NCBI GenBank assembly: GCA_964629685.1
Contig: CAZVTT010000001.1
Location: 705,319 to 769,318, forward strand
Direction: 5' to 3'
DNA from: an uncultured Gammaproteobacteria bacterium
GTDB lineage: Bacteria; Patescibacteriota; Microgenomatia; UBA10105; UBA927
Length of the DNA stretch: 64,000 nt
The stretch's first letter is position 1. Every line of letters begins with the position of its first letter. Under the pieces are notes generated by a model. The model saw only the letters and a program-made list of their open reading frames with translations, did not search any database and had not been told where the DNA came from. A program made the position numbers and the translations under genes. Positions 1-36,329 of the stretch are shown here, in pieces.

Positions 1-1
1 C

Positions 2-226
2 TCGAATGTTTCTTCAATACCAGAAGTCGTGGGAAATTGTGGAATTCTTGTTGATCCTGACAATATTGCTCAAATAGCTACTGCGATGAAAGAAGTCCTG
101 AATAATGAACAAAAACGGAGTCTTATGCGTGAAAAAGGATTATCTCAATCTCGAAAATTTACGTGGAACAGAACAGTAGATTCCTTATTTCAAATATATA
201 ATGAAGTGTTACAGAGAGCTATTTGA
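2..226 (+). CDS. C-terminal fragment of a GT4 (GT-B fold) glycosyltransferase. The 5' end lies outside the window.
   Basis: Frame 2 is open from the window edge. The tail ...EVVGNCGILVDPDNIAQIATAMKEVLNNEQKRSLMREKGLSQSRKFTWNRTV... has the typical GT4 C-terminal pattern. It is convergent with the next gene and overlaps it by 18 nt. Confidence 0.5.
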   Translation, partial: SNVSSIPEVVGNCGILVDPDNIAQIATAMKEVLNNEQKRSLMREKGLSQSRKFTWNRTVDSLFQIYNEVLQRAI

Positions 227-1297: not shown

Positions 1298-1302
1298 AAT
1301 AA

Positions 1303-4597: not shown

Positions 4598-4598
4598 A

Positions 4599-6848: not shown

Positions 6849-9061
6849 AGAATTTGATTGTAAACCGTTATAAGTTTATCAATAGTGTTATTCCAGCTAA
6901 ATTTTTTCGAGTATTTGCTTACTTCTCTGCTTAAATGCATCCGCATAGGTACATTATCGATTAAAGTGTCAATGTCATGAGCAAATTGTACTGTGTTATT
7001 TATATTACCAAGAATACCCATACTATTAAGTATTTCCCGTACTTCTGGCGTATCATTCGCCACGATTGGTAGTCCCATTGCCATTGCTTCGAGTAAAACT
7101 AGTGGAAATGCCTCACGCTCTGAAGGTAGAATAAATATATCTGATGCTTTATACATTTCTATAAGCGCATTCCCTTTTAGAGTTCCATGAAATATTACGT
7201 TTGAAAGCTCAAGTTGTTTAGCAATATTTTCAGCTTTGCTTCTCAATTCTCCGTCTCCGACTATATGAAGTTCAACTGAGTTGCGGACGTGTGGTATTAC
7301 GTCAAGCAGTTTGAAAATATTTTTTTGGGTAGTAAGGCGGCCTACAAAAAGTAATTTGATGAACTTTTTAGGGCGAATAGTTCGTTTAAATAAATATTCA
7401 TTTTCAAAACCATTCGGAATTATGGTTATTTTTTCGGTTTTTAATCCATACAATTGTATAACTCTCTTTTTCTGAGTATTGTTTAAGACAATAATTTTGT
7501 TTGCATTTCGTAAAACGCGTTTTAGAAAGAGTTGCTTATATAACGGCAACAAAAAACCTAATTTTCCAGATGCACCCAAATCAATATGTATATGAGCAAC
7601 ATAAGGTATCCCTCTTACTTTAGCTATAAATGCCACAATTTCCGGAAAAAGCGCCTGGGCAATGTGTAAATGGATTATTGATCTTTTAGGTAATGAAAAA
7701 AGTTTTTTGATTAAGCCAAAGGGTATAGGAGTATGCGCAAGTTCAAACGCTTTTAACCGGGTAATTTCAAGTGATTCTGTTTTAAAATGATTATTAAATC
7801 CCAAAGATGTTGTAATCACTGATGTGTTTATATTATTAGCTTTGAGACCAGCAGTGATGTTTTCTACGCATTGTTCCATACCACCTAAGTGTGGGGGGTA
7901 ATATGGAGTGAGTTGAACTATGGATGGAATTCTTTCATTCTTATTCGCAATTTCGGATAACACATCCATATATTTTTGAGTTTTATTCTCCCATTGAAAT
8001 TTACTTGCTGTAATCAACCCGTTAGTTACTAAGTGATTAGCTTTTACTGTCTCTTTGAGCAGCGTACGAATTGCTGTTGCAAGTTCATGTGGATTCCCCG
8101 GTTCAACCAGTAATCCGTTTTTATTATGTGTTATTAGGTGTGGAATCCCGCCAATATTTGAGCCTATTACATTTGTTCCACAAGCCATAGCCTCCAGCAA
8201 TACCATACCGAAGGACTCAGCCTCAGATGTAGATGGTAGCACTAATATATTTGAAGATTGATATTCTTTTACTAAGTCCAGACCATTCCGTCTTCCTACA
8301 AATTTTACATGATTCTCTAGTTCGTAATTAACTGTCTGTTTTTTATATAGATCTACTGCATTCCCATCTCCAACTACGCGGAGATTAAGTGGAAAACCTT
8401 GCATATGTAAGATTTTTATGGCTGAAATTAATGTTGAAAGTCCTTTCCATTTGGTTGCATTGTCTATATTCCCGACGAAAAGTACAGTATTCTTTCGTTT
8501 TTTACCTGCAGCTTTATACTGGTTTAAATCAACTCCAGGTTGAATTAACCAGCTTGATCTAGCAATCGGAGCAATTTTTTCTTTTAAAAACGGTGGAGAT
8601 ATTGCTATTACTGCGTCTGAATTTTTTATTAGTTCTGGCAAAATGTTTTTTTCATAAACATTAATAATCGAATCTACAAGTAAATTGTTTTTTTTCATGC
8701 TCCCGGCATGATAGGTAAGAATAAAAGGGTTATTATTTTTTGCAAGATATGCCATATCCGCCATAAATGGAACGGGTGCGTGAGCATTAATAATGTCTGG
8801 CTTTTCTTTTTTAATAATTTCCCGTAAGTGAAAGTACCAATTCGGGTTTATTGGGGTATTCGAGAGTTTAAACAGCGTTGGTAGTCTATATATTTTTATA
8901 CCGTCCAAGGTTTCAGTAGTTATGGATTTATTATCAGACGAAGTCACTACAACAATCTCCATATGATAATCAAAACAAAGTTTTTGAGCTATTGAATATA
9001 CGTATCGTTCCAACCCTCCTACAGAAGGATAGAAATACGGAGTTGTAATAAGTATTTTCAT
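6845..9061 (-). CDS. Tandem double GT4 glycosyltransferase (GT4-GT4 fusion)
   Basis: 738 aa. Two GT-B units are present. The first begins MKILITTPYFYPSVGGLERYV and contains ...VLPSTSEAESFGMVLLEAMACGTNVIGS. The second begins SIVQLTPYYPPHLGGMEQCV and contains ...ILPSEREAFPLVLLEAMAMGLPIVA. Each carries an E-x7-E-like motif. Confidence 0.6.
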   Translation of the reverse strand: MKILITTPYFYPSVGGLERYVYSIAQKLCFDYHMEIVVVTSSDNKSITTETLDGIKIYRLPTLFKLSNTPINPNWYFHLREIIKKEKPDIINAHAPVPFMADMAYLAKNNNPFILTYHAGSMKKNNLLVDSIINVYEKNILPELIKNSDAVIAISPPFLKEKIAPIARSSWLIQPGVDLNQYKAAGKKRKNTVLFVGNIDNATKWKGLSTLISAIKILHMQGFPLNLRVVGDGNAVDLYKKQTVNYELENHVKFVGRRNGLDLVKEYQSSNILVLPSTSEAESFGMVLLEAMACGTNVIGSNIGGIPHLITHNKNGLLVEPGNPHELATAIRTLLKETVKANHLVTNGLITASKFQWENKTQKYMDVLSEIANKNERIPSIVQLTPYYPPHLGGMEQCVENITAGLKANNINTSVITTSLGFNNHFKTESLEITRLKAFELAHTPIPFGLIKKLFSLPKRSIIHLHIAQALFPEIVAFIAKVRGIPYVAHIHIDLGASGKLGFLLPLYKQLFLKRVLRNANKIIVLNNTQKKRVIQLYGLKTEKITIIPNGFENEYLFKRTIRPKKFIKLLFVGRLTTQKNIFKLLDVIPHVRNSVELHIVGDGELRSKAENIAKQLELSNVIFHGTLKGNALIEMYKASDIFILPSEREAFPLVLLEAMAMGLPIVANDTPEVREILNSMGILGNINNTVQFAHDIDTLIDNVPMRMHLSREVSKYSKKFSWNNTIDKLITVYNQIL

Positions 9062-10194
9062 AGAGAATATACTTCGGTAATTTCTTTAACTATTTGATCC
9101 CAGTCTTTTATTTTTTTTGACTTAACTGGTAGATTATTTTTTTTGGTACTCAGATATAAACCAATTGCAGACGCAATCGATTCAGGTGTTAATTTCGTAA
9201 CTATTCCATCATTTTTATCAGTAATTAGTGTTTTGGCAGCATTATTCGGTTCGTCAACAGTGACGACCACAAGTCCAACAGCTAAAGCTTCTATAACTAC
9301 AATTCCATAACCTTCACGACTTGAAGGAATAACCAGAATTTTTGATCCTTTTAGCAGACTATATAATTCTGTTTTTGTTGAGCAAAATTCTAGAAAGATG
9401 ATGTTTTTTTGTAAATCTAATGATTCTACTAGTAGGTTTAAATTATTTTTTTCCGGTCCATCTCCTATAATTAAGCATCGAATTGATGGTGTGGTTTTTT
9501 TTAGCACAGAGATAGCTTTGATAAGAATATCTACGTTTTTATGTTTCAGTAACCTGCCTGCAAAAATGACATCAGATTTTTGTATTGGTTTTGGAGCAGT
9601 CAGAATTTGTGCATAATTAACTCCATTATTAATAGTATGTATTTTTTTGTCGTCTACATATCTTAACAATCTTTCTTTTGTAACAAACGAACTGGCAATA
9701 AAAACATTTGGAAGTTGAAAACTAATATATTCAATTACACTTGAGATAAATCCGAGTACTCCCATATATTTCAACCAATATTTTTTCCCCCATACTTCAT
9801 GCCATGTGGCAAACATTTTTTTACCTTTTAACCAGCATGCTAGTCGTACTGAATACAGGGGGAAATACGGCATGTGATCAACGTCTATTACATCAAACTC
9901 TTCTTTAAACAATTTAAGACACGCGAGTCCAAACAGTATCCCTTGTTTAATGGATCTGCGTTCTCCTGAATAGAGCGGATAGAGGGGGGATATGGCATGG
10001 AGGGTAACCCCTTCCTCTATGCGAACCTTTTCCGGAGTAGTCCACCACTTCATGCAGTAGATGTGTACGTCGTATCCGCGTTTAGCCAGACGCATGGATA
10101 TTTCGTGGAGCCGGGTTTCTTTGCCCCCTTTGTTGTAGGGGTAAATAGCATCGGATACAAAAGCAATACGGTGAGCCGTTTTTGCATTAACCAT
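9058..10194 (-). CDS. GT4-family glycosyltransferase
   Basis: 378 aa with RIAFVSDAIYPYNKGGKETRLHEIS...VIPSSREGYGIVVIEALAVGLVVV. Confidence 0.6.
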   Translation of the reverse strand: MVNAKTAHRIAFVSDAIYPYNKGGKETRLHEISMRLAKRGYDVHIYCMKWWTTPEKVRIEEGVTLHAISPLYPLYSGERRSIKQGILFGLACLKLFKEEFDVIDVDHMPYFPLYSVRLACWLKGKKMFATWHEVWGKKYWLKYMGVLGFISSVIEYISFQLPNVFIASSFVTKERLLRYVDDKKIHTINNGVNYAQILTAPKPIQKSDVIFAGRLLKHKNVDILIKAISVLKKTTPSIRCLIIGDGPEKNNLNLLVESLDLQKNIIFLEFCSTKTELYSLLKGSKILVIPSSREGYGIVVIEALAVGLVVVTVDEPNNAAKTLITDKNDGIVTKLTPESIASAIGLYLSTKKNNLPVKSKKIKDWDQIVKEITEVYSL

Positions 10195-10206
10195 AGGCGT
10201 AGTAAT

Positions 10207-10956
10207 CTACAATGATTCTTCCTGTATTTGTCGAAGTTTTAACGGACGACGCGGATGAGGAGGTTGCCAGGAAAGATTTGTTATCAGCATGTGCATGATT
10301 TTGTAGCCGTCCCGGATAGAATCTATTTTTGACATCCCTTTGCGTTGGTCGTAGGTAATCGGAACAGAATATATTTTGTATCCCAGCTTTACCATTTTGG
10401 TAATCATTTCCATTTCCACGGCAAATCCGTTGGCATTTATATGTGGTTTTAGTACGTCTACTACTTCTTTTTTCCAGGCAAAATACCCGCTTAACACATC
10501 CGTAATATTGGCTTTGTAAAACTGCCGTACCATAAAGGTAAACATCCAGTTAGCTACACGGTGCTGAAAGCTGAGTGCATTGGCGTTTAATTTTCCACCC
10601 AATCGTGAACCCACGATTACATCACAAAAGTTACTGGACAATGGTTCGATAAGACGCAGTATCTCACTGGGTTTGTATGTATGATCCCCATCCAACATCA
10701 CTACATATCCGGCATCTTTGCTTACGGCGTTAAACCCTGCGCGGAGTGCATGGCCTTTGCCTTTGTTCCGTTCATGAATTATTTTTACTCCGAATTCTTT
10801 GGCTACTGCGGCGGTTTTATCGGTAGAATTGTTATCGATTACGATTACTTCCGTTTCCAGGCCATATCCCAGCATTTCCGCACGAGGGATTTCGGCCAGA
10901 ACGTGGCCGATACCGTCTTCTTCATTATGGCAGGGGATTAGAATAGAAATTTTCAT
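10207..10956 (-). CDS. GT2 polyprenol-phosphate sugar synthase (DPM1/GtrB-like)
   Basis: 249 aa. MKISILIPCHNEEDGIGHVLAEIP...VIVIDNNSTDKTAAVA...VVMLDGDHTY is the classic DPM1-like pattern. Confidence 0.6.
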   Translation of the reverse strand: MKISILIPCHNEEDGIGHVLAEIPRAEMLGYGLETEVIVIDNNSTDKTAAVAKEFGVKIIHERNKGKGHALRAGFNAVSKDAGYVVMLDGDHTYKPSEILRLIEPLSSNFCDVIVGSRLGGKLNANALSFQHRVANWMFTFMVRQFYKANITDVLSGYFAWKKEVVDVLKPHINANGFAVEMEMITKMVKLGYKIYSVPITYDQRKGMSKIDSIRDGYKIMHMLITNLSWQPPHPRRPLKLRQIQEESL

Positions 10957-10957
10957 A

Positions 10958-11401
10958 TTATTCTACAAATGTCCAAAAGTGGATATTTTGTTGTTGATCA
11001 GGTAAACTCACCTCAATTTTAGTACGTCCACTTACGGAGCTAATCATCGGATTTGCGTCAATAGTTTTCATATCGTTATGTGCCAAACGGATAAATCCTT
11101 CATCGAGTAATAATTTTCCGGACGACGTTGTTTCTGCAGTGATTTGGTATTTGTACTCCATAACCTTATTTTCTAAATTATGCAAGGTAAACCGGAACGG
11201 TATTTGTTCGTTTTGATTGCTAGTCTGAGGGAGTTCCATATGTCTCTCAAAATAGAGTTCCGAAAACTTTTCTGGTTCTGGAAGAAGGTGATACGTATTA
11301 AGTATACTTTTAATACTATGGGTATTCGCAGAAAGAAGGACTACAGCAGATAGAAGAGTGAATAATGTTGCGGATAATATTGCAATATTTCTGGTACTCA
11401 T
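10958..11401 (-). CDS. Small signal-anchored protein of unknown function
   Basis: A hydrophobic N-terminus (MSTRNIAILSATLFTLLSAVVLLS) is followed by about 120 aa of soluble sequence. The start was set at the ATG at 11401. It lies downstream of an extended -10 element. Confidence 0.35.
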   Translation of the reverse strand: MSTRNIAILSATLFTLLSAVVLLSANTHSIKSILNTYHLLPEPEKFSELYFERHMELPQTSNQNEQIPFRFTLHNLENKVMEYKYQITAETTSSGKLLLDEGFIRLAHNDMKTIDANPMISSVSGRTKIEVSLPDQQQNIHFWTFVE

Positions 11402-11486
11402 AAGCGAAAACACCGATTATGTTCTTAATAAATACAATAAACAGAGTCGTAGAAAGAAGACACTGGTTATTACTATAAGATTATTT

Positions 11487-11495
11487 GTGTCGCTA
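11487..11495 (-). promoter_or_regulatory. Extended -10 element (TGgTATAAT) for the minus-strand operon that begins at 11401
   Basis: The reverse complement of 11487-11495 reads TGGTATAAT. It sits in a 125-nt gap between two minus-strand genes. Confidence 0.35.
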
Positions 11496-11539
11496 AATTA
11501 TACCAGTTTTGTGTAGAGAAAGAAATATAGACTACGTTT

Positions 11540-13081
11540 CTATTGTATCAGATCTTTAATCATCCCCTCGATGGTCCTATTGGTATCGAAGAGTATTCCC
11601 ACCACTGATTGTTCGGGGACAGCAATTTTCATCGAAAGCGTGGTGTTTGCCGTTAAACTTTTAGCACCAAGTAATGTAAAACCGTCTTGTATATTTGAAG
11701 CTACATACGCACGGGCACGGACGTATCCTTTATATGGAGGGTTATTAATATTAACTGTAACTTCTTTTGGCGAATATTCGTCATTCACCAGAATAATACC
11801 GGTTTCGTTTCTGCTGTTTTTAAAAGCTAGTTGTGCAGCTAGATCTTTACCAGTAGAAAGAAAAATTCTACTATCGCCATTACCCAAACCAAGTGTTTTG
11901 CTTAAGAGTATCCAGCTTTTTGACTGAGGCAATAGTGTGGCTTGGTCATTTGTCCAACGGTAAAATGCATATTTTTCCTGGTCTATATTCGAATTTTTTG
12001 CATTTACCGGTTCAATAACGTGATAACTCGTACCTTTTATGCCATTTGTAAGGTAGTAGATAAGCCTTTTGGAAGTAAACGGTATAGCTAAATACGTATT
12101 GGTGTTGGGACTTGGTCTTCCTATATTCGTAGCAAAACTCCATTCTGTTACAAAAACAGGTAGGTCCTGACGGCCTCGCGAAAGCAATGTTTTTTGAATA
12201 ATTGGTAAGGCATCGTCATTTACGCCATAGTAATGGTAACTTACGAAATCGATATTGTTGGCAGTTCTTGGATCGACCAGAATCGTTTGTAAAATAGTGT
12301 TATTTTTTACATTCGAAAGCGTGGGACCTCCGATGGGTATCCGTTTCCCGTCGTTCATTTCTGCATCTACTTCCCTGATTGCCGTGGAAGCATAGTAATA
12401 AATGTTCGCATATGCCTGTTCTTTGGACATCCCACTGTTTTTTAAATCCAGAAATCGGGGATGATCTGGTTCGTTCCAAATTTCTATGTAATCAATTTTA
12501 GGACGAAAGTATTTATACGCTTTTTTTACAATATCTTTATAAACATCCCAGTCTTTTGGTACGCCGAACGTGGTTCCTGAGTACGTTAACCAGCTCGGAG
12601 CATAGGAAACTATGGCTATAGTAGTTAGGTTTCTGGATCGGGCATTATCAAAAAATATTTCCCTGCTTGCGATATTCGCTTTATTCCAATTTGTAACGTC
12701 CTGAATTCCGTTTACGTTCGCTTTATATGATTCCAAGGTAGTGTCTTTATGAAAAAAATATTCGAGTAAAAAGTCTTTTCGTATGGCTGTAACGCCCGCC
12801 GCAGTAATTTTATTCCACGCATCCTGGTGTTCCGGAAGGGGGGCATGGGCGCCGCCAAATACCAGAGGAGAACCTGTGGAAATTTGTTGGGCATAGTCTG
12901 CGTTCACAGTTGCAGTGGTGCTGGTAATTCCCAGTACGTCCGAGGTTCTATATACAATAAACTTACCTGATCGATATACCTGCTTGTATTCAGATATACC
13001 CGAGCTGAGAATCCTACCAATGGATATTGAAGCAATAATTAAGAGTACGAAAAATATGATTTTGGGTGGATTCAATTTCAT
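11540..13081 (-). CDS. Membrane-anchored glycoside hydrolase, clan GH-A (GH5/GH39-like)
   Basis: 513 aa with an N-terminal TM anchor. IEIWNEPDHPRF looks like an NEP acid/base motif. PVFVTEWSFAT looks like a TE(W) nucleophile motif. Confidence 0.45.
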   Translation of the reverse strand: MKLNPPKIIFFVLLIIASISIGRILSSGISEYKQVYRSGKFIVYRTSDVLGITSTTATVNADYAQQISTGSPLVFGGAHAPLPEHQDAWNKITAAGVTAIRKDFLLEYFFHKDTTLESYKANVNGIQDVTNWNKANIASREIFFDNARSRNLTTIAIVSYAPSWLTYSGTTFGVPKDWDVYKDIVKKAYKYFRPKIDYIEIWNEPDHPRFLDLKNSGMSKEQAYANIYYYASTAIREVDAEMNDGKRIPIGGPTLSNVKNNTILQTILVDPRTANNIDFVSYHYYGVNDDALPIIQKTLLSRGRQDLPVFVTEWSFATNIGRPSPNTNTYLAIPFTSKRLIYYLTNGIKGTSYHVIEPVNAKNSNIDQEKYAFYRWTNDQATLLPQSKSWILLSKTLGLGNGDSRIFLSTGKDLAAQLAFKNSRNETGIILVNDEYSPKEVTVNINNPPYKGYVRARAYVASNIQDGFTLLGAKSLTANTTLSMKIAVPEQSVVGILFDTNRTIEGMIKDLIQ

Positions 13082-13332
13082 TCTGAATTAGTTTTTGTAT
13101 TCTACACTATATATTTAGAATAAAACCAACAATTACTGTATCTTTGTACAATCCTTACACAATTCTTACAAGAGTGTATTACACTAAATATAGTGACCGC
13201 CCTATTATGGGATCAATTGAGTCATTCGTGAGGGATGGCTCTATCAGATAGGTCAAACGTCCCGCCAAGCGGGGCGAAATTATATTCATACATTTTTCTG
13301 GACCTGCTCCTTCATAAAAGAAAAAATACTAC

Positions 13333-29403: not shown

Positions 29404-30982
29404 TCTGAGCTGGATGCTTTCTATTGCAGAAAGACTAAAACGGTGGGCGCATGCACGGCCCGGGCTGTTTTTTGTACTGACACCTGCCATAAGTACGGCG
29501 GTGGTTAGTACACTGTATTTCCTGATGCAGGATACCATCGTGGCCTACGGGGACGCGGAATCGCATTTAAATATTGCCAAACGGGTTATTCATAGTATTA
29601 CCCCCGGTATTGCCCAGCTGGGAGGCATCTGGTTACCACTGCCGCACGTGATGATGGTGCCGTTCGTTGCCATAGACGCATTGTGGCGTACTGGCTTGGC
29701 CGGATCAATTGTTTCCGGTATGTGTTATCTGATTGCGGCAGTATTCCTGTACAAATTAGCCATGCTGGTGATCGGAAACAAATGGGCGGCGGTGCTTACA
29801 TCACTCGTATTTGTATTTAATCCCAATATTATGTATTTGCAGGCGACGTCCATGACGGAGCTGCCGTTAATCGCATTTTTTACATTATCCAGTTATTTCT
29901 TTATAAAATATCTGAAGGGTAAACAGCCGTTATACTCGCTGGTGTTGGCAGCATTCTTTGGATTTTGCGCCGTTTTGTCCCGCTATGATGGTTGGTTTTT
30001 GGTTCTTTTTGAGTCTTTGATTATTGGGATTCAGGGTTTTGTATTGCGTTGGAAATGGAAAAAAATAGAGGGTAGCGGAATTTTGTTCGTGACCTTGGCG
30101 TTCTTCGGTATTCTGCTCTGGCTATTGTGGGGACAGCTTATTCTGGGGAATGCGCTATATTTTACGCAAAGTCAGTTTAGTGCCCAGACCCAGCAACGGG
30201 CCTGGCTTGCCAAAGGTGAATTACCGGCGTATCACAATGCCTGGTTGGCAGCAGCATATTATTTTGTGACGGCGATGGGTAATGCCGGAATTTTATTGTG
30301 GTTTGTGGCTATCGCGGGTTTGATAGTATATTTGCGCCGGGGGACAGACAGAAAAAGATTTTTAATAGTGTTATTGCTGATGGTGCCGTTTCTGTTTAAC
30401 TTTGTAACCTTATTCATGGGGCAGTCGGTAATTTTTATACCGCACCTGACACCCGTGTCTTTTGAATGGCGGTTATTTAACGTACGGTACGGTGCCATGA
30501 TGATTCCCGTGGTCGCGTTTTTTATCGGAACGTTATTCAGCAGAGCCTCAAAATTCGGAAAAGTAGTTATACTGGGTTTGTTTATGGCGCAATTTGGATT
30601 ATTCGGAATCGGATATACCAATGTCATTAGTTATGCCGATGGTGTAGTAGGGTTATCCCATGCCAAACGGCCTGACGCCGAGCAATGGATGAAACAACAC
30701 TATGACGGCGGACTGGTACTTTTGGATGACTATGCACGTACCATGAGTATTATCCGGGCAGGCATTCCGATGCAGAATGTAATATATATTGGGAATAAGC
30801 CGTATTGGGAAGAGTCATTGCAGGACCCGGCCAAATATGCGGTATGGATCGTAATGCAGAAAGATGATGCCGTGTGGACGAGTTTAATAAACGATAAGGC
30901 AGTAGAAGGCAGACTTTACGCAACATTTGAAAAAGTTTATACTTCCCCGGAAATTCTCATTTTTCGCCGTCAGGAAAAATAA
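29393..30982 (+). CDS. Polytopic GT-C-type membrane glycosyltransferase (GT39/PMT_2-like)
   Basis: 529 aa and very hydrophobic. The N-terminal loop reads IVAYGDAESHLNIAKRV. Confidence 0.45.
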   Translation: MDINLSWMLSIAERLKRWAHARPGLFFVLTPAISTAVVSTLYFLMQDTIVAYGDAESHLNIAKRVIHSITPGIAQLGGIWLPLPHVMMVPFVAIDALWRTGLAGSIVSGMCYLIAAVFLYKLAMLVIGNKWAAVLTSLVFVFNPNIMYLQATSMTELPLIAFFTLSSYFFIKYLKGKQPLYSLVLAAFFGFCAVLSRYDGWFLVLFESLIIGIQGFVLRWKWKKIEGSGILFVTLAFFGILLWLLWGQLILGNALYFTQSQFSAQTQQRAWLAKGELPAYHNAWLAAAYYFVTAMGNAGILLWFVAIAGLIVYLRRGTDRKRFLIVLLLMVPFLFNFVTLFMGQSVIFIPHLTPVSFEWRLFNVRYGAMMIPVVAFFIGTLFSRASKFGKVVILGLFMAQFGLFGIGYTNVISYADGVVGLSHAKRPDAEQWMKQHYDGGLVLLDDYARTMSIIRAGIPMQNVIYIGNKPYWEESLQDPAKYAVWIVMQKDDAVWTSLINDKAVEGRLYATFEKVYTSPEILIFRRQEK

Positions 30983-32235
30983 TGAACTATCTTTTGTTTC
31001 TTTTTATCGTGTGCGGTTTGCTTCTGAAACCTGCACAGGTTTTTGCAGCTGAACGTTTTTGGCCGATAGTATCTATAGATACCATGAAATATTCCCGGGA
31101 CAGAGCCCGCGAGTCGGGAATGAGAGAGCAGATACCGGCGTATATTACCGCGGTGGCGGCACTTCAGCCCACTCATATAGCGATAGGGACTCCCTATGAT
31201 GAAGAATTTTATCCTGTGATGAAGGTTTGGGTTGACGAAATCAGAAAGCAGAACATGCATGTTTGGTTCCGGGGTAATTTTTCCGGATGGGAGGGGTGGT
31301 TTGATTATCCGAAATTAAAATCGGTGGCGGAGCATCATATAAAAACCCGGGCTTTTATTGAGAAGCATCCGGATTTATTTGAAAATGGGGATATTTTTAC
31401 TCCGGCTCCGGAACCGGAAAATGGTTTGATCCGGGATCCAAGGCATGCAGACGGTAATAAAACGGAGTTCTTAAAATTCTTGACGGATTCATATAGTACC
31501 TGTGCTACAGCTATGAAAAAAGTCAAAAAGGATGTGCGCTGCGGATATTTTTCCATGAACGGAGACGTAGCCAGGGAAATAATGACCAAAGAGGCGGTGG
31601 CTTCAAGCGGCGGTGTGTTGGTTATAGACCATTACGTAAAGGAACCGGAGAAATTAGTGAAGGATGTGGAGTTTTTGTATGAAAAATACGGGTATCCGGT
31701 GGTGTTGGGGGAATTCGGGGCACCAATTCCCGACATAAACGGCAATATGACTCCTGAGCAGCAATCCGGGTATATTACGGATGTGCTTACCGGATTGTTG
31801 CGGTTAAAAGAAAAAGTCGGCGGTATGAACTATTGGACCGCTTTTGACGGTACTACGCAGCTCTTTCAGAAAGATTTAGTTGCCAGACCGGCTGCCAGCG
31901 CCCTTTCACTCATGTATAAACCTTCGGTGTTACGCGGTACGGTAACCGATCAATTCCATGCACCGCTTAAAGATGTGACGTTAATGGTGGCCAAGGGAGC
32001 CGTAACCGTAAAAACGAATGCTGACGGTGTATACGAATTGCCATTACCGAATTTAGTCACAAAAGTAGTAGTTTCTCCTCCTGATGAGACTTTGGTGGCA
32101 GGCGTGGTTAACGTAGAGCTGGAAACCAGAAGCGATATGGAACGGAATATTATTTTAAGCAGGACGGATAACAGTTTTTATGGTCGGGTTGTGCGCTTTT
32201 TACGAAATTTTGTGGCTAAAATACTATCTCAGTAA
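30982..32235 (+). CDS. Secreted clan GH-A-like glycoside hydrolase with a C-terminal beta-sandwich (CarboxypepD_reg-like) domain
   Basis: A signal peptide is present (MNYLLFLFIVCGLLLKPAQVFAAE). PAPEPENG is a candidate acid/base motif. VVLGEFGAP is a candidate nucleophile motif. The C-terminus reads GTVTDQFHAPLKDVTLMVAKGAVTVKTNADGVYELP. Confidence 0.4.
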   Translation: MNYLLFLFIVCGLLLKPAQVFAAERFWPIVSIDTMKYSRDRARESGMREQIPAYITAVAALQPTHIAIGTPYDEEFYPVMKVWVDEIRKQNMHVWFRGNFSGWEGWFDYPKLKSVAEHHIKTRAFIEKHPDLFENGDIFTPAPEPENGLIRDPRHADGNKTEFLKFLTDSYSTCATAMKKVKKDVRCGYFSMNGDVAREIMTKEAVASSGGVLVIDHYVKEPEKLVKDVEFLYEKYGYPVVLGEFGAPIPDINGNMTPEQQSGYITDVLTGLLRLKEKVGGMNYWTAFDGTTQLFQKDLVARPAASALSLMYKPSVLRGTVTDQFHAPLKDVTLMVAKGAVTVKTNADGVYELPLPNLVTKVVVSPPDETLVAGVVNVELETRSDMERNIILSRTDNSFYGRVVRFLRNFVAKILSQ

Positions 32236-32326: not shown

Positions 32327-33220
32327 ATGAAAACTGCCCATTTCGTACCGTTAACCCTTGTTTTTGTTCTCTCTTTTTTTGTACTCGCCCGTTCGGTTTC
32401 CGCTGCTGCTCCCGATGGTGCAGGGCCTTGGGCTGACGCCGTTACCTCTTTCAGCCAGGGATTTACCAAAGACGGAAGCTCTGTCCCGGCACTCAGGAGT
32501 GATCCTGCGGCGGCGCTAGGGGTAGCCGAAGATGATACCGCAGAAGGTCATTTTGTTTCATTGGGATTCGGCGGAGTACTAACCTTACGTTTTGATAATC
32601 CGGTCCGGACCGGTGTGCTCGTGTTTGAGGCTACAAACCCCAATTATCCGGCGGAAAAGGCTACTATTTCTGTTTCTGCTGACGGGGTAAGTTGGACTTC
32701 CGCGGGAAGCATTTCCCAGGACGGACAGGTTTCGTTGCCGGAGGGGATTACCTGTGCCAAATACGTGAAAATTACGGACACCAGTATAAAGGAAGATTTT
32801 GTCGAAGGATCTGCTGATGCATATGATGTAGATGGGGTGAAAGCGGTTGGTACCGAGCCCTGTTCGAACCCAACTCCGACTCCGTCTCCCACGCCAACAC
32901 CTACACCGGACGGTTGTGGACCGGACACGAATGTAAATATTTCCGGGAACGGAGCCGGTTCGGTAAACAAGGTGATTAAGAATGGCTCGAATTCAACCAG
33001 CGTCGTGGTTGGTGCTCAATCCAAGGTCAAAACGACCGTAAAAACCAAAGCTGTTTCCGGAAATAATAAAGTTAAGAATAATACCGGAGGAGGGGTAACG
33101 GTAACGTCCGGCTCCAGTACCTCTTCTACCACCGTGGGAACGGTGGTGGGAGGTACCACTGTCAGTGTCACTAATTCCTGCTGCGGCTGCGGTGAATCCT
33201 GCTCCCATAAAACGGAGTAA
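32327..33220 (+). CDS. Secreted protein with an unknown beta-rich N-terminal domain, a PT-rich linker and a Cys-rich C-terminal tail; paralog of the next gene
   Basis: A signal peptide is present. The domain AAAPDGAGPWADAV...LGFGGVLTLRFDN...SADGVSWTSAGSISQDGQVSLPEGITCAKYVKITDTS is shared with the 33348 product. The linker is TPTPSPTPTPTP. The protein ends SCCGCGESCSHKTE. Confidence 0.45.
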   Translation: MKTAHFVPLTLVFVLSFFVLARSVSAAAPDGAGPWADAVTSFSQGFTKDGSSVPALRSDPAAALGVAEDDTAEGHFVSLGFGGVLTLRFDNPVRTGVLVFEATNPNYPAEKATISVSADGVSWTSAGSISQDGQVSLPEGITCAKYVKITDTSIKEDFVEGSADAYDVDGVKAVGTEPCSNPTPTPSPTPTPTPDGCGPDTNVNISGNGAGSVNKVIKNGSNSTSVVVGAQSKVKTTVKTKAVSGNNKVKNNTGGGVTVTSGSSTSSTTVGTVVGGTTVSVTNSCCGCGESCSHKTE

Positions 33221-33286
33221 AGGGTAAAGGCAAAGTGCAATAAAATCTACTGTTTTAGCCTCAATTATTTAGGCCTATAGCGCCTA

Positions 33287-33314
33287 TTGCTTTTTGTTCT
33301 TTGTGTGCTATAAT
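33287..33314 (+). promoter_or_regulatory. Putative promoter: -35 TTGCTT, 16-nt spacer, extended -10 TGcTATAAT
   Basis: TTGCTT occupies 33287-33292. TGCTATAAT occupies 33306-33314. It is preceded by a weak hairpin (TAGGC...GCCTA, 33270-33286) and a T-rich run, which may act as a terminator for the upstream gene. Confidence 0.35.
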
Positions 33315-33347
33315 ACATCTCTATTGTATAAGTTATAGGACACAATT

Positions 33348-34439
33348 ATGAACAAATTTTTCAGCTTGATTTTCGTATTGGCTTTCCTGGCTTTAACGCC
33401 TACTTTTGCATATTCTGCAGCTCCAGACGGTAATGGTCCCTGGGCAGATGGCGTAGTAACTTCTCACCAAACTACTATTCGAAACGGCGCTCTTGTTAGC
33501 GACGTAGCACCGGCCCGTAGCAATCCACAATCGGCCGTTGGTGTGGCAGAGAATGACACTACCGAAGGAAATTTCTTTTCTTTAGGATTCGGCGGATCAA
33601 TTACCCTGAGTTTTGATAACGGTATTCGTGGTGGTGTAATCGTAGTGGAAGCGACTAATCCACAGTATCCGGTAGAACATGCTCAAGTAGAGGTTTCTGC
33701 GGACGGATCTACCTGGTTTAGTGCAGGTTCTATAGATCAGGACGGTGAAGTGAATATGCCGGAAGATCTGGCATGTGCACGCTTTGTGCGGATTACCGAT
33801 ACCAGTAACGTAAATGATTTTGCTGAAGATACTGCAGATGGATTTGATGTCGATGGTGTACAGGCGCGTGATGCCGGTTCCTGTGAACCTACGGAAACTC
33901 CAAGCGTTACGCCTACACCCAGCCCAACTCAGGCTCCGTCAAACGACAACAATAATAACAACAATAATAATGGTGGTGGCAGTGGCCAGCCGGCACAATG
34001 TAATGCCGCTAAACCTCCTACCCCGACTTTAACATCGGTAAACCGTACCAGTGGAACAACGGCAAATCTTACCTGGACCGCCGTATCACCGGTAACGCAT
34101 TATGCAATATCGTACGGTTTAAAACCGGGTGAATATCAGTACGGCGTACCGAATACCGGAAACGTCACCAGTTTTTCCATTGGTGGTCTAGATCCAAACG
34201 CATCGTATTACTTTTCAGTTCGTGCCATAAATGACTGTACTCCTGGAGAAGCTTCCGGAAACGGATCAACAGGCAGCGTGCTGGGTGCCAGCACCGGCGG
34301 ACAGGTATTGGGGGCATCTACCGATACACTCGCGGCCACCGGATCATCTGCTGAATTGTTCAGAATACTGTCTGCAGTGGCAACTTCTGTTGTTACGGCC
34401 ACAGTTCTGCTACGATCAGTTCAGGATGAAAATAGGTAA
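33348..34439 (+). CDS. Secreted surface protein: unknown N-terminal domain, a poly-Asn/PT linker, a fibronectin-III-like domain and a C-terminal LAATG sortase sorting signal
   Basis: The N-terminal domain is homologous to that of the 32327 product. The linker reads TPSVTPTPSPTQAPSNDNNNNNNNNGGGSG. The FN3-like stretch reads LTWTAVSPVTHYAISYGLKPGEYQY...SYYFSVRAIND. The C-terminus has LAATG (nt 34329-34343), then a hydrophobic stretch, then RSVQDENR. Confidence 0.55.
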   Translation: MNKFFSLIFVLAFLALTPTFAYSAAPDGNGPWADGVVTSHQTTIRNGALVSDVAPARSNPQSAVGVAENDTTEGNFFSLGFGGSITLSFDNGIRGGVIVVEATNPQYPVEHAQVEVSADGSTWFSAGSIDQDGEVNMPEDLACARFVRITDTSNVNDFAEDTADGFDVDGVQARDAGSCEPTETPSVTPTPSPTQAPSNDNNNNNNNNGGGSGQPAQCNAAKPPTPTLTSVNRTSGTTANLTWTAVSPVTHYAISYGLKPGEYQYGVPNTGNVTSFSIGGLDPNASYYFSVRAINDCTPGEASGNGSTGSVLGASTGGQVLGASTDTLAATGSSAELFRILSAVATSVVTATVLLRSVQDENR

Positions 34440-34992
34440 GCTACCGGAAAAAATCAGACAAAACGTTATTCCGTTTCTTTTTCTATCGTTGTCTTCTGGG
34501 GTATTGGTGTATATTCTGTTGGGAACAGCTTCCCCGAATACCAAACCGATACCGGTTCCCACGAATCCCATCGTTACTGTTACCACTACACCGGTAGCGG
34601 AAACGAAACATCCGCCAGTTGCTATCCGTATTCCCGCTATAAAAAGTGAATTACCCGTTCAGGCGGCTTTGGTTCATGATAATCAGTGGGACATGTTTGA
34701 TAATGCAGTAGCGTGGTTGTCGACATCCGCAGTTCCCGGGGAAGGGAACGTAATTCTTTATGCACATAACCGCGCCAAATTGTGGCGGGATTTGTATAAA
34801 GTAAAACCCGGTGATGTTATAGAAGTTCAACAGCAAGATACCTGGTTACGGTACATCGTGACCGAGTCACGAACGGTAACACCCAAGGATATAGACGCGA
34901 TTCTGGCAAGTCAGGAACAGCTCACGTTGTATACCTGTGAAGGAACTTTTGACCAGAAACGCCGCCTTGTTTACGCTGCTCCGGAAAAATAA
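34426..34992 (+). CDS. Sortase (transpeptidase), membrane-anchored
   Basis: An N-terminal TM helix is present. ILYAHNR supplies a His motif. LTLYTCEG supplies the TLxTC catalytic Cys. An Arg lies 9-10 residues downstream (QKRRLVY). The start was set at the ATG at 34426, which overlaps the substrate gene's 3' end by 14 nt. Confidence 0.55.
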   Translation: MKIGKLPEKIRQNVIPFLFLSLSSGVLVYILLGTASPNTKPIPVPTNPIVTVTTTPVAETKHPPVAIRIPAIKSELPVQAALVHDNQWDMFDNAVAWLSTSAVPGEGNVILYAHNRAKLWRDLYKVKPGDVIEVQQQDTWLRYIVTESRTVTPKDIDAILASQEQLTLYTCEGTFDQKRRLVYAAPEK

Positions 34993-35049
34993 ATCCTGCT
35001 TGGTGTGGAATTTTTTTGTGTACCTCTATATAGTGGTAATAGAGACCTT

Positions 35050-36078
35050 ATGTTTGGGCTATTACGACATTTATTTCTTCCGCATCATACCAATAATCAT
35101 CGGGCTAAGTTGCTGCACCTCGATGCCCTTTGTGTATACGTCTTACTGTTTGCTATCTTTAACTTCACCATCAAAATCGGTCATCGTCAGTTTCCCGATA
35201 TATTGGGATACGCGACGGATATTCAGGTAGAACAATTGCTTTCACTGACCAATGCCAAGCGTGCTGAAAATGGATTAGGTTCACTCACGTATAATTCCAA
35301 ACTTGCTCAGGCAGCAGCCGGTAAGGCTGCCGATATGTTTGCCAAAGGATACTGGGCGCACGTGGCGCCGGATGGAAAAACGCCGTGGGATTTTATCAAA
35401 GGGGCAGGATATACCTATACCGTTGCCGGAGAAAATCTGGCGAAGAACTTCCAAAATAGCGGGGGCGTAGTGGACGCTTGGTTGGCATCTCCGTCACACA
35501 GAGAAAATTTACTTAAAGGAAATTACAAAGAGGTGGGTTTTGCTGTTGTAAACGGTGTATTAAACGGTGAAGAAACCACTTTGGTGGTCCAGATGTTCGG
35601 GACATCTACCGGTGCGGAAGTGGCCAGCGCTACTAAAAACAGTGTGGTAAAAGTTGTTCAGGCGCAGGAGCCTACAAATACGCCAACACCTACAAGCGTT
35701 ATAGCATTGGCGCAAGTTGAACCCACTTCAATTCCCGAAACTCCTACACCTACCGAAGAGTTAACACCGACGGAAACTCCCAATCCGGTGGAAGTTACAC
35801 CGGTAGCTTCCGTGATTGAACAATCACCTCCGTCTACCCCAATCGGAAGTGGAATGTTTTTGTCTTCATATAATCAGCCGATGGTAAATATACCGACACT
35901 GAGACGGGATGTTGCTATGGCTTTTGCCGGATTTATGATCGGAATACTGGCGCTGGATGTATGGCATATGACACGGAAAAAAGCCGTAAGGGCTACCGGT
36001 CATACGTTGGCACATATAGCGTTTTTGGCAGCATTAATTATTGGTATTAGTGCAGTTTTGCCGGGTAATATTTTATGA
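35050..36078 (+). CDS. CAP/SCP/PR-1-like (YkwD-type) extracellular domain protein with an N-terminal TM helix, a PT-rich linker and a C-terminal TM region
   Basis: TNAKRAENGLGSLTYNSKLAQAAAGKAADMFAKGYWAHVAPDGKTPWDFIKGAGYTYTVAGENLA...VDAWLASPSHRENLLKGNYKEVGFAVV matches the CAP superfamily. The linker reads PTNTPTPTSV...ETPTPTEELTPTETPNPVEVTPV. Confidence 0.55.
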   Translation: MFGLLRHLFLPHHTNNHRAKLLHLDALCVYVLLFAIFNFTIKIGHRQFPDILGYATDIQVEQLLSLTNAKRAENGLGSLTYNSKLAQAAAGKAADMFAKGYWAHVAPDGKTPWDFIKGAGYTYTVAGENLAKNFQNSGGVVDAWLASPSHRENLLKGNYKEVGFAVVNGVLNGEETTLVVQMFGTSTGAEVASATKNSVVKVVQAQEPTNTPTPTSVIALAQVEPTSIPETPTPTEELTPTETPNPVEVTPVASVIEQSPPSTPIGSGMFLSSYNQPMVNIPTLRRDVAMAFAGFMIGILALDVWHMTRKKAVRATGHTLAHIAFLAALIIGISAVLPGNIL

Positions 36079-36329
36079 AATCACATGTAGATAAAGTAAA
36101 TCTGCTGGTGCTCGTAGCCATATTGGGTTTGGGGATAGGTACATTTGTATACGCCCGCAGCGACAGGAGTCTGCAGCTTGCTGTAGGAATTGTTACCGCG
36201 GTGGCATATGTGCTCTGGGGACTGTTACATCATTCCCTGAAGGGTGACTTGTATCCGAAAGTCGTGGTAGAATATGTGCTCATTGGTGTGATTTCGATTC
36301 TATTACTGACGACTGTCGTAGGGTATTAA
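36075..36329 (+). CDS. Small two-TM membrane protein of unknown function
   Basis: 84 aa with two hydrophobic helices. The start ATGA-overlaps the upstream stop. Confidence 0.35.
   Translation: MKSHVDKVNLLVLVAILGLGIGTFVYARSDRSLQLAVGIVTAVAYVLWGLLHHSLKGDLYPKVVVEYVLIGVISILLLTTVVGY

Follow-up and report, generated by a model that had tools for sequence, protein, structure and literature searches.

In Streptomyces coelicolor, the class E sortases SrtE1 and SrtE2 anchor the long chaplins; the type motif of this class is LAXTG, and SrtE1 carries Tyr229 in a lengthened β3/β4 loop (Kattke et al. 2016, PMC5148588). In class E, the β6/β7 loop is long (26 residues) and, compared with class A, carries an insertion of 21 aa. 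The class A sortases of Bacillales, such as SrtA of B. anthracis (2kw8/2rui) and of L. monocytogenes (5hu4), are housekeeping enzymes that act on many unlinked LPXTG proteins and need Pro at P3. Class C sortases possess a lid with a DP[WFY] motif and a C-terminal membrane helix, and the proteobacterial class GN ('marine') sortase (TIGR03784) is dedicated to a single, adjacent target. Characterised wall-anchoring sortases are known to use the amine of a peptidoglycan precursor, and pilus sortases the amine of a pilin lysine. The 64,000-nucleotide stretch of DNA analysed here (the window) holds a genuine cargo-sortase module that is a variant of this known mechanism, and the pair is largely ordinary, but its enzyme fits none of the curated sortase classes and the recognition tag is unusually long and repeated. 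The direct observations concern gene structure, domain identities, catalytic residues, and the conservation of both the extended signal and the gene pairing.

Gene organization and surroundings

The ORF list of the window contains three consecutive genes on the + strand, encoding a paralog, the cargo (substrate) protein, and the sortase (Table 1), at the coordinates given in the initial annotation. The ATG of the sortase gene lies within a longer mechanical ORF (34231-34992), and the start at 34426 is backed by homologs of 180-190 aa, one of them 96% identical across 100% of the length. The 14-nt overlap with the cargo stop codon (TAA, 34437-34439), also annotated previously, was confirmed. 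The intergenic hairpin and the TGcTATAAT element, both consensus matches only, suggest that cargo and sortase may form their own transcription unit.

Table 1. Coordinates of genes, protein domains, and sequence signals in the paralog-cargo-sortase locus.
Feature	Residues	Position	Strand	Basis or remark
Paralog gene	297 aa	32327..33220	+	ORF
Paralog signal peptide; PT linker	1-26; 181-194	within gene 32327..33220	+	
Paralog CBM32/discoidin-like N-domain	27-180	32405..32866	+	alignment with cargo N-domain family
Paralog C-terminal module, Asn/Thr/Gly/Ser-rich, Cys-flanked	195-297	32909..33217	+	
Terminator-like hairpin and T-run		33270-33286, within feature 33270..33314	+	intergenic, sequence read
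TGcTATAAT		33306-33314	+	3' of hairpin, intergenic; consensus match
Cargo (substrate) gene	363 aa	33348..34439	+	ORF
Sec-type signal peptide	1-23	33348..33416	+	sequence
N-terminal domain	24-180 (157 aa)	33417..33887	+	AF2, Foldseek; galactose-binding-domain-like / CBM32 / F5-8 type C beta-sandwich
PT-rich and poly-Asn linker	poly-Asn run 201-208	33888..34019	+	sequence
Fibronectin type III domain	225-303	34020..34256	+	Pfam fn3 (PF00041)
Two VLGAST heptad copies	311-316 and 320-325	34278..34322	+	shortly before cleavage motif
LAATG pentapeptide	328-332	34329..34343	+	sequence, conserved in homologs
Hydrophobic membrane-spanning stretch; charged tail RSVQDENR	333-355; 356-363	34344..34436	+	
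Sortase gene	188 aa	34426..34992	+	ORF; ATG start 34426
Sortase membrane anchor; Pro/Thr linker; catalytic domain	14-33;; ~60-188	within 34426..34992	+	

A large glycan-biosynthesis region surrounds the pair, in agreement with the glycosylation island proposed earlier. It includes genes for GT2/GT4 glycosyltransferases together with a GtrA-type GT2, for enzymes such as polysaccharide deacetylase, pyruvyl transferase, and UDP-glucose dehydrogenase, and for a PMT_2-like membrane protein, as well as rhamnose-pathway-type genes (nucleotidyl transferase, dTDP-sugar epimerase, dehydratase, and RmlD-type reductase). The surrounding locus would build an envelope glycan, with its rhamnose-pathway and pyruvyl-transferase genes, and synteny of the pair with glycan-biosynthesis genes was found in several genomes.

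Affiliation of the sortase

The product of the third gene is a sortase, as first proposed: it passed Pfam PF04203 (80.5 bits vs 26.6, E=1e-22) and TIGR01076 (45.5 bits vs 39.35) and has the His-Cys-Arg triad in conserved order and sequence context (xxHN, TLxTC, and Arg further on). Across 87 homologs, His114 (YAHN), Cys171 (LYTCEG), and Arg179 are without exception the same, and Arg180 is near-invariant, with L in its place occasionally. The catalytic residues His126, Cys187, and Arg196 of SrtA from B. anthracis (BaSrtA) align with His114, Cys171, and Arg180. Transpeptidase activity on the sorting signal is predicted.

None of the NCBIfam class models was passed by the window sortase or its 86 relatives, and 0/87 clade members reached E<=1e-20 for any NCBIfam model. 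The best class-specific partial match was to class C (NF033745, 52 bits vs a cut-off of 160), above class E (NF033747, 44 bits vs 160, E=2e-11), SrtD (36.8 vs 140), class D (35.9 vs 165), class F (34.9 vs 166), and GN (27.9 vs 158 bits), and models of classes A and B were absent among the matches of the window sortase at E<=0.1. In a profile search of the PDB, the best matches were the class A structures 2kw8 (BaSrtA, E=1e-11) and 5hu4 (L. monocytogenes SrtA, E=2e-10) together with class D 4d7w. The one chain recognised as class E, 5utt (SrtA of A. oris), stood near the bottom of the 47 PDB matches (E=5e-5), among which no S. coelicolor SrtE1 entry was seen.

The initial annotation had by implication linked the enzyme to class E, and an ordinary housekeeping sortase of this actinobacterial type, with the cargo as one of many LAXTG substrates and adjacent by chance, would account for both the LAATG of the window cargo, which fits the class E type motif (PMC5148588), and the partial class E match. 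However, this match falls below even that of the class C model, the nearest structures belong to classes A and D, and the adjacency of the two genes is kept even with unrelated cargo. The spacing from His to Cys is 57 residues in the window sortase, compared with 69 in SrtE1 and 64 in SaSrtA, and therefore there is no long β6/β7 loop. Likewise, by alignment rather than structure, the class E Tyr was not found in sortase residues 90-108 (DNAVAWLSTSAVPGEGN), the segment that aligns to the β3/β4 loop and precedes β4 and His114, where an invariant Trp97 stands. Class E membership was rejected, and this reading of the pair is very improbable. The resemblance to the actinobacterial class E systems such as SrtE1 and SrtE2 lies in the Ala at P3, the membrane anchor, the His/Cys/Arg triad, and the Cys-to-Arg spacing of 9, whereas the 188-aa window sortase lacks their long β6/β7 loop, β3/β4 Tyr, and long cytoplasmic tail, its gene directly follows that of a substrate with two upstream VLGAST heptads, and it occurs in Patescibacteria, not Actinobacteria.

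The nearest solved relatives by sequence are the class A enzymes of Bacillales, with which it shares the compact catalytic domain, the same Cys-to-Arg spacing, and the N-terminal membrane anchor; however, identity is at most ~30%, the class A NCBIfam model gave no score at E<=0.1, and P3 is Ala or Gly in 187/189 distinct tails of the family rather than Pro. With class GN it has in common one sortase gene paired with one target bearing a non-canonical signal, although the GN signal is another one and the present family combines a constant signal with highly diverse cargo.

A class C-like sortase that assembles pili or fibres, polymerising the cargo head-to-tail or via lysine instead of anchoring monomers, is quite improbable. 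It would suit the best partial HMM match and a sortase encoded with its own substrate in the fashion of a pilus island, and also the two cargo-sortase pairs found in some loci (L004, L007). Nevertheless, the score lies far under the cut-off, and no class C marks were found in the window sortase: there is no 'DP' dipeptide and hence no DP[WFY] lid, and the protein, which stops 8 residues past Arg180, lacks a membrane helix at its C-terminus. Instead of CnaA/CnaB pilin domains, the cargo bears CBM32-like and FN3 domains. At alignment position 22 of the N-domain, where Lys is near-invariant, the window cargo has Arg, and each sortase has one cargo in place of a set of shaft, tip, and base pilins. 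The window sortase is assigned to a clade of Patescibacteria sortases that lies outside the curated classes A-F.

A repeated sorting signal paired with its sortase gene

The cargo has an N-terminal leader followed, at the C-terminus, by a pentapeptide, a hydrophobic stretch, and charged residues. The tripartite sorting signal annotated around LAATG is real and conserved in homologs, but it extends further: the pentapeptide closes a longer signal with repeats, which in the window cargo reads SVLGAST-GG-QVLGAST-DT-LAATG; the predicted sortase target stretch lies in GSVLGASTGGQVLGASTDTLAATGSS. The family consensus is (x)VLGAST-x-(x)VLGAST-(Dx)-[LM]AxTG, of which LAATG forms the end. Two VLGAST copies are present in 159/189 distinct tails, the gap to the pentapeptide is 0 or 2 residues, and LAxTG or MAxTG prevail among the pentapeptides, which lie 25-42 residues from the C-terminus across signal-bearing proteins. 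When a profile built from the 60 C-terminal residues was searched against 1.84 billion proteins, the extended signal was found in at least 203 protein clusters, and its position was at or near the C-terminus in all 150 matches listed except two of low score (P0346, P0374). The domains of these cargo proteins are diverse and unrelated, including lectin-like, Ig-like, TSP1-like, and ice-binding-like ones, and among 144 new signal matches the N-domain of the window cargo occurred in only 3 and FN3 in 7. No NCBIfam sorting-signal model matched the cargo at E<=0.1, no Pfam model covered its C-terminus, and the extended VLGAST signal is undescribed in curated models or in the literature searched.

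Compared with classical Lys/Arg-rich sorting tails, the charged tail of the cargo is the weaker one: a single Arg directly follows the hydrophobic stretch, acidic residues come next, and another Arg stands last. This weakly basic tail is the only feature that could be taken to indicate that LAATG is coincidental, the C-terminus being a plain membrane anchor and the sortase acting elsewhere. However, when the whole window was scanned in six frames for [LIVMF][PAG]x[TSA][GASN] followed by a hydrophobic run and a basic residue at the ORF end, just the cargo gene and one spurious antisense ORF came up, and the same signal is conserved in the homologs; chance occurrence was set aside on these grounds. 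Moreover, pentapeptide and repeats are kept in hundreds of proteins whose cargo parts are unrelated, and at the loci checked the signal always adjoins a sortase gene. Coincidence is effectively refuted by this conservation and adjacency across the checked loci, and is scarcely conceivable.

The adjacency itself was kept at all checkable loci, 22/22 from the sortase side and 12 from the cargo side, which strongly supports the dedicated pair proposed in the initial annotation. In GTDB genomes searched with the sortase profile, the signal-bearing ORF ends at or overlaps the sortase start in all 22 loci, and a sortase was present in 6/6 metagenome loci that had been found by the DNA pattern of the signal and had downstream sequence, one of them as a short partial match. 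The sortase gene is directly 3' of the cargo gene in L002, L003, L004 (two pairs), L005, L006, and L007, and sortases at 30-36% identity to that of the window still adjoin signals of the QVLGAST/QILGIST type. The named records are all Microgenomates or Patescibacteria, apart from one Chloroflexota (26% identity), and 227 cargo homologs were found, for which the source names among the matches listed are all Patescibacteria groups; a protein identical to the cargo is encoded on an NCBI contig of 953,690 bp. A sortase family that is near-ubiquitous in Microgenomates has been reported (Méheust et al. 2019, PMC6744442).

These data make it likely that the cargo and sortase genes form a two-gene module in a Microgenomates-type (Patescibacteria/CPR) bacterium, with a secreted cargo paralog encoded before it, and that this module serves to anchor the cargo. 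The Sec signal peptide would export the cargo, whose C-terminal hydrophobic segment and charged tail would keep it in the membrane. The sortase, a putative type-II membrane protein made from the overlapping downstream gene, would bind SVLGAST-GG-QVLGAST-DT-LAATG and cut between Thr331 and Gly332, the site expected from the established sortase mechanism, via Cys171, His114, and Arg180. The thioacyl intermediate would then be resolved onto the amine of a cell-wall precursor, presumably of peptidoglycan, leaving the lectin-like domain covalently displayed on the cell surface. As a rule, sortases of this clade are encoded directly 3' of their predicted cargo. Release of the cargo by hydrolysis, or its transfer to another acceptor such as the local envelope glycan or a lipid, is unlikely, since the sequence gives no pointer to another acceptor; it would nonetheless agree with the embedding of the pair among syntenic glycan-biosynthesis genes, with a CPR envelope structure that is called unclear in the literature (PMC5220378), and with VLGAST repeats that have no precedent in peptidoglycan-anchoring signals.

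For the anchoring module, we infer a role of the VLGAST repeats in recognition by the sortase, although their conservation could instead reflect the spread of signal and sortase as a cassette, or a function as spacer or glycosylation site. That the window sortase represents a distinct, Patescibacteria/Microgenomates-specific "seventh class" is a serious possibility that falls somewhat short of being probable. Such a class would comprise minimal enzymes of 160-280 aa with the signature AWLSTSxxPGEGN...YAHN...LTLYTCxGxFDxKR, obligately encoded directly 3' of, and often overlapping, the single protein processed, whatever the cargo, and recognising the tandem-heptad signal (x)VLGAST-(x)VLGAST-(Dx)-[LMFY]AxTG. 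The cleavage heptad appears as a third, diverged copy of the repeat (for example EVLGATT-DVLGATG in P0010), and recognition would therefore reach well beyond the pentapeptide.

Displayed domains and significance for Patescibacteria

Outward, the cargo would present an FN3 spacer, a PT/poly-Asn linker, on which glycosylation is a matter of speculation, and a distal CBM32/discoidin-like domain. The FN3 domain scored above the Pfam cut-off (39 bits vs 25, E=9e-10) and is flanked by Cys218 and Cys297. All cargo homologs keep the mature N-terminus AAPDGxGPWAD, and their N-domain always starts directly after the hydrophobic leader; within this domain, Cys143 is invariant and Cys179 almost so. Initially thought to match nothing recognisable, the N-domain gave an AF2 model (pLDDT 93.4, pTM 0.89) with a discoidin-type beta-sandwich, whose best Foldseek matches in the PDB were the F5/8 C-domains of chitobiase (3ggl/3f2z), CBM32 modules (4lks/5zu6), and the muskelin discoidin domain (E=2e-4 to 1e-3, TM 0.5-0.63). 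Recurring sub-threshold Pfam matches point in the same direction: PF22633 was matched by 23/86 N-domain members and PF00754 by 13/86, with a best E-value for F5/8 type C models of 2.8e-5 across the family, although all remained under the gathering score (~16-17 bits vs 28.2 and 14-16 bits vs 27.8). According to the model, the N-domain is a distant CBM32/discoidin-type beta-sandwich and probably a glycan binder, although TM is only moderate and sequence identity to solved CBM32-like members is only 8-17%. It also differs from CBM32 in its context, being the distal part of a small, presumably wall-anchored protein and not attached to a glycoside hydrolase.

The paralog shares this N-domain (54% identity over ~200 aa, BLASTP E=1e-71; weak F5_F8_type_C matches, E=0.02-0.04) and, as described initially, has a Cys-rich tail instead of a sorting signal, which was absent from its sequence. 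The tail contains Cys197, ISGNGAGS (aa 205-212), a beta-rich Asn/Thr/Gly segment, and CCGCGESC (aa 285-292), and ends in SCCGCGESCSHKTE. The same type of tail is found on ~45 homologs, and AF2 gave no confident model of it (pLDDT 45). The paralog would presumably be released or held non-covalently, and by analogy only, cargo and paralog resemble an anchored-plus-free pair such as the anchored long and secreted short chaplins of the class E system.

Much of bacterial diversity belongs to Patescibacteria/CPR, which presumably live in attachment to other cells, yet little is understood of how they build and decorate their surface. For one major lineage, the module described here gives a simple, testable rule, namely a VLGAST...[LM]AxTG tag on a surface protein with its own small sortase gene directly 3', that would allow systematic prediction of wall-displayed, mostly unannotated proteins in Microgenomates genomes. 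If the repeats are recognised, sortase and tag would form an orthogonal pair whose long recognition sequence may be of use in protein ligation. In the window, the cargo is likely a wall-anchored lectin adjoining envelope-glycan genes, which points to glycan binding, of self or host, as its role.

Organization of the cargo-sortase locus

Reading of the open reading frames (ORFs) recovered the three genes of interest at exactly the positions proposed in the initial annotation, namely the sortase substrate (cargo), the sortase, and an upstream paralog of the cargo.

Positions of the cargo-sortase genes, their domains, and neighboring features in the window (aa, position within the protein)
Feature	Position	Strand	Size	Description
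Second glycan cluster	1-13100	-		GT4, GT2, core-2/Branch enzyme, PMT_2-like, DUF2206, GH39/GH5-like; GC content of the region 0.30-0.40 vs 0.43-0.49 in the remaining window
Secreted protein	30982-32235	+	417 aa	Unassigned N-terminal region; sub-threshold CarboxypepD_reg-like domain, aa 317-367
Paralog	32327-33220		297 aa	Leader and N-terminal domain, PT linker, Cys-flanked Asn/Thr/Gly/Ser-rich tail ending SCCGCGESCSHKTE
Paralog tail	32909-33217	+	103 aa	Conserved unannotated Cys-flanked module, also in homologs P0054-P0109
Cargo	33348-34439	+	363 aa	Hydrophobic leader at N-terminus
Cargo N-terminal domain	aa 24-180			Conserved, begins AAPDGNGPWAD
Cargo linker				PT-rich, with eight consecutive Asn (aa 201-208)
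Cargo FN3 domain	aa 225-303			Pfam, 39 bits vs 25
Cargo C-terminus				...GSVLGASTGGQVLGASTDT-LAATG-SSAELFRILSAVATSVVTATVLL-RSVQDENR
Cargo sorting signal			30 aa	With VLGAST copies: GSVLGASTGGQVLGASTDTLAATGSSAELF
Sortase	34426-34992	+	188 aa	ATG 14 nt before the cargo stop codon; hydrophobic N-terminal anchor (aa 14-33), Pro/Thr linker, sortase domain
CAP/YkwD-family protein	35005-36078	+		Directly after the sortase; Pfam CAP E=3e-18; PT-rich linker, hydrophobic C-terminal region
Small membrane protein	36075-36329	+	84 aa	Weak DUF5656 match

The paralog shares 54% identity with the cargo across the leader and N-terminal domain (E=1e-71). A six-frame scan of the 64-kb window detected sorting-signal-like C-termini only in the cargo and in one spurious antisense ORF. 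The stretch between the paralog and the cargo contains a terminator-like hairpin as well as a TGcTATAAT element; going by these pattern matches, the cargo and sortase genes appear to form a unit of their own with coupled translation. No RNA families were identified by an Rfam scan of the whole window.

The pair is located inside an envelope-glycan gene block that exceeds 40 kb, for which the earlier description as a "glycosylation island" is a fair label. This block encodes GT2 and GT4 glycosyltransferases, a polysaccharide deacetylase, a pyruvyl transferase, a UDP-glucose dehydrogenase, a GtrA-type GT2, and rhamnose-pathway-type enzymes (an NTP transferase, a dTDP-sugar 3,5-epimerase, a member of the 4,6-dehydratase family, and an RmlD-type reductase), as well as a PMT_2-like membrane protein and two adjacent membrane-protein-sized ORFs (~510-530 aa) without a Pfam match. 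The second glycan cluster, at the start of the window, is compositionally distinct and was possibly acquired horizontally or is hypervariable.

Some neighboring genes recur in related loci of other genomes. Locus L002 keeps the order paralog-cargo-sortase, with a CAP-domain gene and an RmlA-type nucleotidyl-transferase gene further downstream, and its CAP gene is followed by a gene (90 aa) similar in size to that of the small membrane protein. A CAP-domain gene is also found near the pair in L005, and in L002 and L004 genes resembling that of the 417-aa secreted protein precede the paralog or the cargo.

Classification of the sortase

The sortase domain was recognized by Pfam (E=1e-22) and by TIGR01076, the latter above its cut-off. 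Across 87 aligned sortases, comprising the window enzyme and 86 relatives, His114, Cys171, and Arg179 were invariant and the Arg180 column, whose aligned counterpart in B. anthracis SrtA is Arg196, was near-invariant (R, occasionally L). The initial annotation had taken the signal to be of the type used by class E enzymes. The implied class E assignment of the enzyme failed: the HMM score was far below the cut-off, the loop features were missing, and the nearest PDB matches belonged to classes A and D. The NCBIfam models gave 52 bits for class C (cut-off 160), 44 for class E (160), 36.8 for SrtD (LPxTATN) (140), 35.9 for class D (165), 34.9 for class F (166), and 27.9 for GN (158), while the class A and class B models gave no match at E<=0.1, and none of the 87 clade members reached E<=1e-20 with any NCBIfam model. 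In the profile search against the PDB, the best matches were to class A (2kw8, 5hu4) and class D (4d7w) structures. The one chain recognized as class E, 5utt (A. oris SrtA), ranked near the bottom (5e-5), and no S. coelicolor SrtE1 entry was seen among the 47 matches. Searches for papers on entries 9IOK, 9IV0, and 9M5J found none of relevance.

Two features mark class E sortases, the beta3/beta4 loop (16 residues), which carries a conserved Tyr, and the beta6/beta7 loop (26 residues); the catalytic residues of SrtE1 are His251, Cys320, and Arg329 (Kattke et al., PMC5148588). In contrast, the segment preceding beta4 in the window sortase (DNAVAWLSTSAVPGEGN) has no Tyr and contains an invariant Trp97, and the spacing from His to Cys is 57 residues, compared with 69 in SrtE1. 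The hallmarks of class C, a lid motif and a C-terminal helix, are absent from its sequence. The conserved triad, considered together with the class models, the PDB ranking, and the loop features, indicates at the sequence level that the enzyme is a bona fide sortase whose clade falls outside the curated classes. The way in which it would accept Ala or Gly at P3 may differ from that of class E.

In related locus L007, the region 5097-9454 (minus strand) also contains a second, different sortase, which has the motif MMTCWPPG and shares 26% identity with the window enzyme. It comes after two other proteins, one of 331 aa and one of more than 2,394 aa in which SpaA and SdrD_B domains abound. Some of these genomes therefore have another sortase type as well, with other signals.

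The sorting signal and its pairing with the sortase

The LAATG sorting signal noted in the initial annotation is real, but the pentapeptide is only part of a conserved tandem-repeat module common to many cargo families. Alignment of homolog C-termini revealed a near-invariant G-Q-V-L-G-A-S-T-D-[TV]-L-A-A-T-G, with another (x)VLGAST copy ahead of it. In a number of sequences, such as the homolog P0010 (QVLGTST...EVLGATT-DVLGATG), the cleavage heptad can itself be seen to be a third repeat copy. No NCBIfam or Pfam model recognizes this C-terminal module. A word-indexed homology search with a 60-aa signal query, which offers few usable 5-mer words, returned only 2 matches; an exhaustive HMM search of 1.84 billion cluster representatives with a signal profile of 60 positions recovered 203 proteins at E<=1e-3, 20 of them at E<=1e-10. 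Among the 150 matches listed, the profile matched at or near the C-terminus, except in the low-scoring proteins P0346 and P0374.

Among 189 distinct tails, 159 contained two VLGxxT copies, the gap between VLGxxT and the pentapeptide was 0 residues in 97 and 2 residues in 84, and the distance from the pentapeptide to the C-terminus was 25-42 residues. The pentapeptides were LAxTG (84), MAxTG (55), LGxTG (18), FAxTG (9), and YAxTG (7), with LPxTG in only 2. The newly recovered proteins rarely carried the N-terminal domain (3 of 144) or FN3 (7 of 144); Pfam domains such as CarboxypepD_reg, DUF4215, Big_1, TSP1, SdrD_B, SpaA, and ice-binding-like were found in a minority of the signal proteins, most having no match.

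The proposal of a dedicated sortase-substrate pair was supported by gene adjacency in loci found from either side. Six cargo proteins picked solely for sitting on long contigs (P0018, P0028, P0045, P0266, the FN3-only P0115, and the TSP1-type P0324) all had a sortase directly downstream, and two cargo-sortase pairs were present in L004. A degenerate DNA pattern for VLGASTDTLAATG identified 7 metagenome loci, some of them near-duplicates, and a sortase was present in all six with downstream sequence, one as a short partial match. From the sortase side, a profile scan that took a single genome from each GTDB species yielded 23 loci, including one distant Chloroflexota locus (26% identity); in all 22 others, a same-strand, signal-bearing ORF ended at or overlapped the sortase start. 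The more distant signals of Davies- and Curtissbacteria were of the form xVLGxxT-x-LG-x-T-[GS], with cargo ORFs of ~100-140 aa (stop-to-stop). Signals of the QVLGAST/QILGIST type still adjoin sortases just 30-36% identical to the window enzyme, and this retention argues for selection acting on the repeat, the alternative being that signal and sortase spread together as a cassette.

Cargo domains, the paralog, and distribution in Patescibacteria

The N-terminal domain of the cargo, earlier said to match nothing recognizable, proved to be CBM32-like by AF2 modeling (pLDDT 93.4, pTM 0.89; 86-sequence alignment) and Foldseek. Comparison with the PDB retrieved Bacteroides chitobiase F5/8-type-C domains, CBM32 modules, the muskelin discoidin domain, and lectinolysin (E=1.7e-4 to about 3e-3, TM 0.5-0.63, 8-17% identity), and sub-threshold Pfam matches recurred among the aligned sequences (PF22633 in 23 of 86, best E=2.8e-5; PF00754 in 13 of 86). 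Both lines place the modeled domain, as a distant member, in the galactose-binding-domain-like superfamily; most simply, it is a putative glycan-binding module. Cys143 is fully conserved and Cys179 nearly so, and the two may form a disulfide.

Head-to-tail polymerization of the cargo through the mature N-terminus AAPDG was rejected, since in the model Pro3 onward lies inside the confidently folded domain and other cargo families have no such N-terminus; a pilin-type Lys was likewise discarded, the near-invariant Lys at position 22 of the domain being Arg in the window cargo. In further proteins, the N-terminal domain is followed by the signal alone (no FN3), by another kind of globular tail, or by LPNTG. 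Homologs P0089 and P0106 end in repeated PNTG motifs, LPNTG, and a hydrophobic tail without VLGAST/LAxTG, so that the domain is also combined with a different signal type.

The architecture of the paralog is common to about 45 homologs, in which the N-terminal domain and PT linker are followed by a module of ~100 aa (CxxC...QxNxT...ANTGGNKAxKNTGG...TGNA...VTGGxN...CCC...TNVTISGNGAGSTNTV), with a Lys-rich end in most. The window paralog lacks this Lys-rich end and has an ISGNGAGS segment before the core, and its module looks circularly permuted. The tail had no Pfam or NCBIfam match, and its AF2 model, from a 39-sequence alignment with the first 15 residues misaligned, had a mean pLDDT of 45 and a pTM of 0.19, values at which no fold can be stated. 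Our best guess, of low confidence, is that the paralog partners the anchored protein, either as a secreted protein or through non-covalent association.

A protein identical to the cargo is present on a 953,690-bp NCBI contig. The source names, where shown, of 227 cargo homologs were all of Patescibacteria type (Patescibacteria group, Levybacteria, Parcubacteria), as were those of 140 sortase homologs (e.g., Gottesmanbacteria), and the loci of the GTDB scan carried Gottesman-, Woese-, Davies-, Curtiss-, and Chisholmbacteria, "Patescibacteria group", and "Gammaproteobacteria binchicken" titles. Nine loci (L008, L009, L013, L018, L019, L023, L024, L027, and L028) show a Microgenomates-type cargo-sortase pair under "uncultured Gammaproteobacteria bacterium" titles; these titles ("isolate binchicken_* / SRP* / ERP*") look like placeholder or wrong taxonomy.

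In the literature searched, the string VLGAST was not found, and the LAATG matches listed were nucleotide strings or unrelated, save a few possibly on bacterial signals (C. diphtheriae cell wall; Tat substrates). A sortase family has been reported from over half of the CPR genomes, near-ubiquitous in Microgenomates (Méheust et al. 2019, PMC6744442), and lectin, FN3, and "sortase motifs" have been mentioned as features of CPR surface proteins (PMC5220378); sortases and their substrates were thus already known in Patescibacteria/CPR. The CPR papers found mention sortases only in passing, and nothing in the literature searched described the signal, class, or gene organization of these sortases. 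The mechanism would be that of the known sortase paradigm, and the system is new as a variant, in which an unclassified sortase clade from Patescibacteria comes together with an extended signal and an obligate pairing of cargo and sortase.
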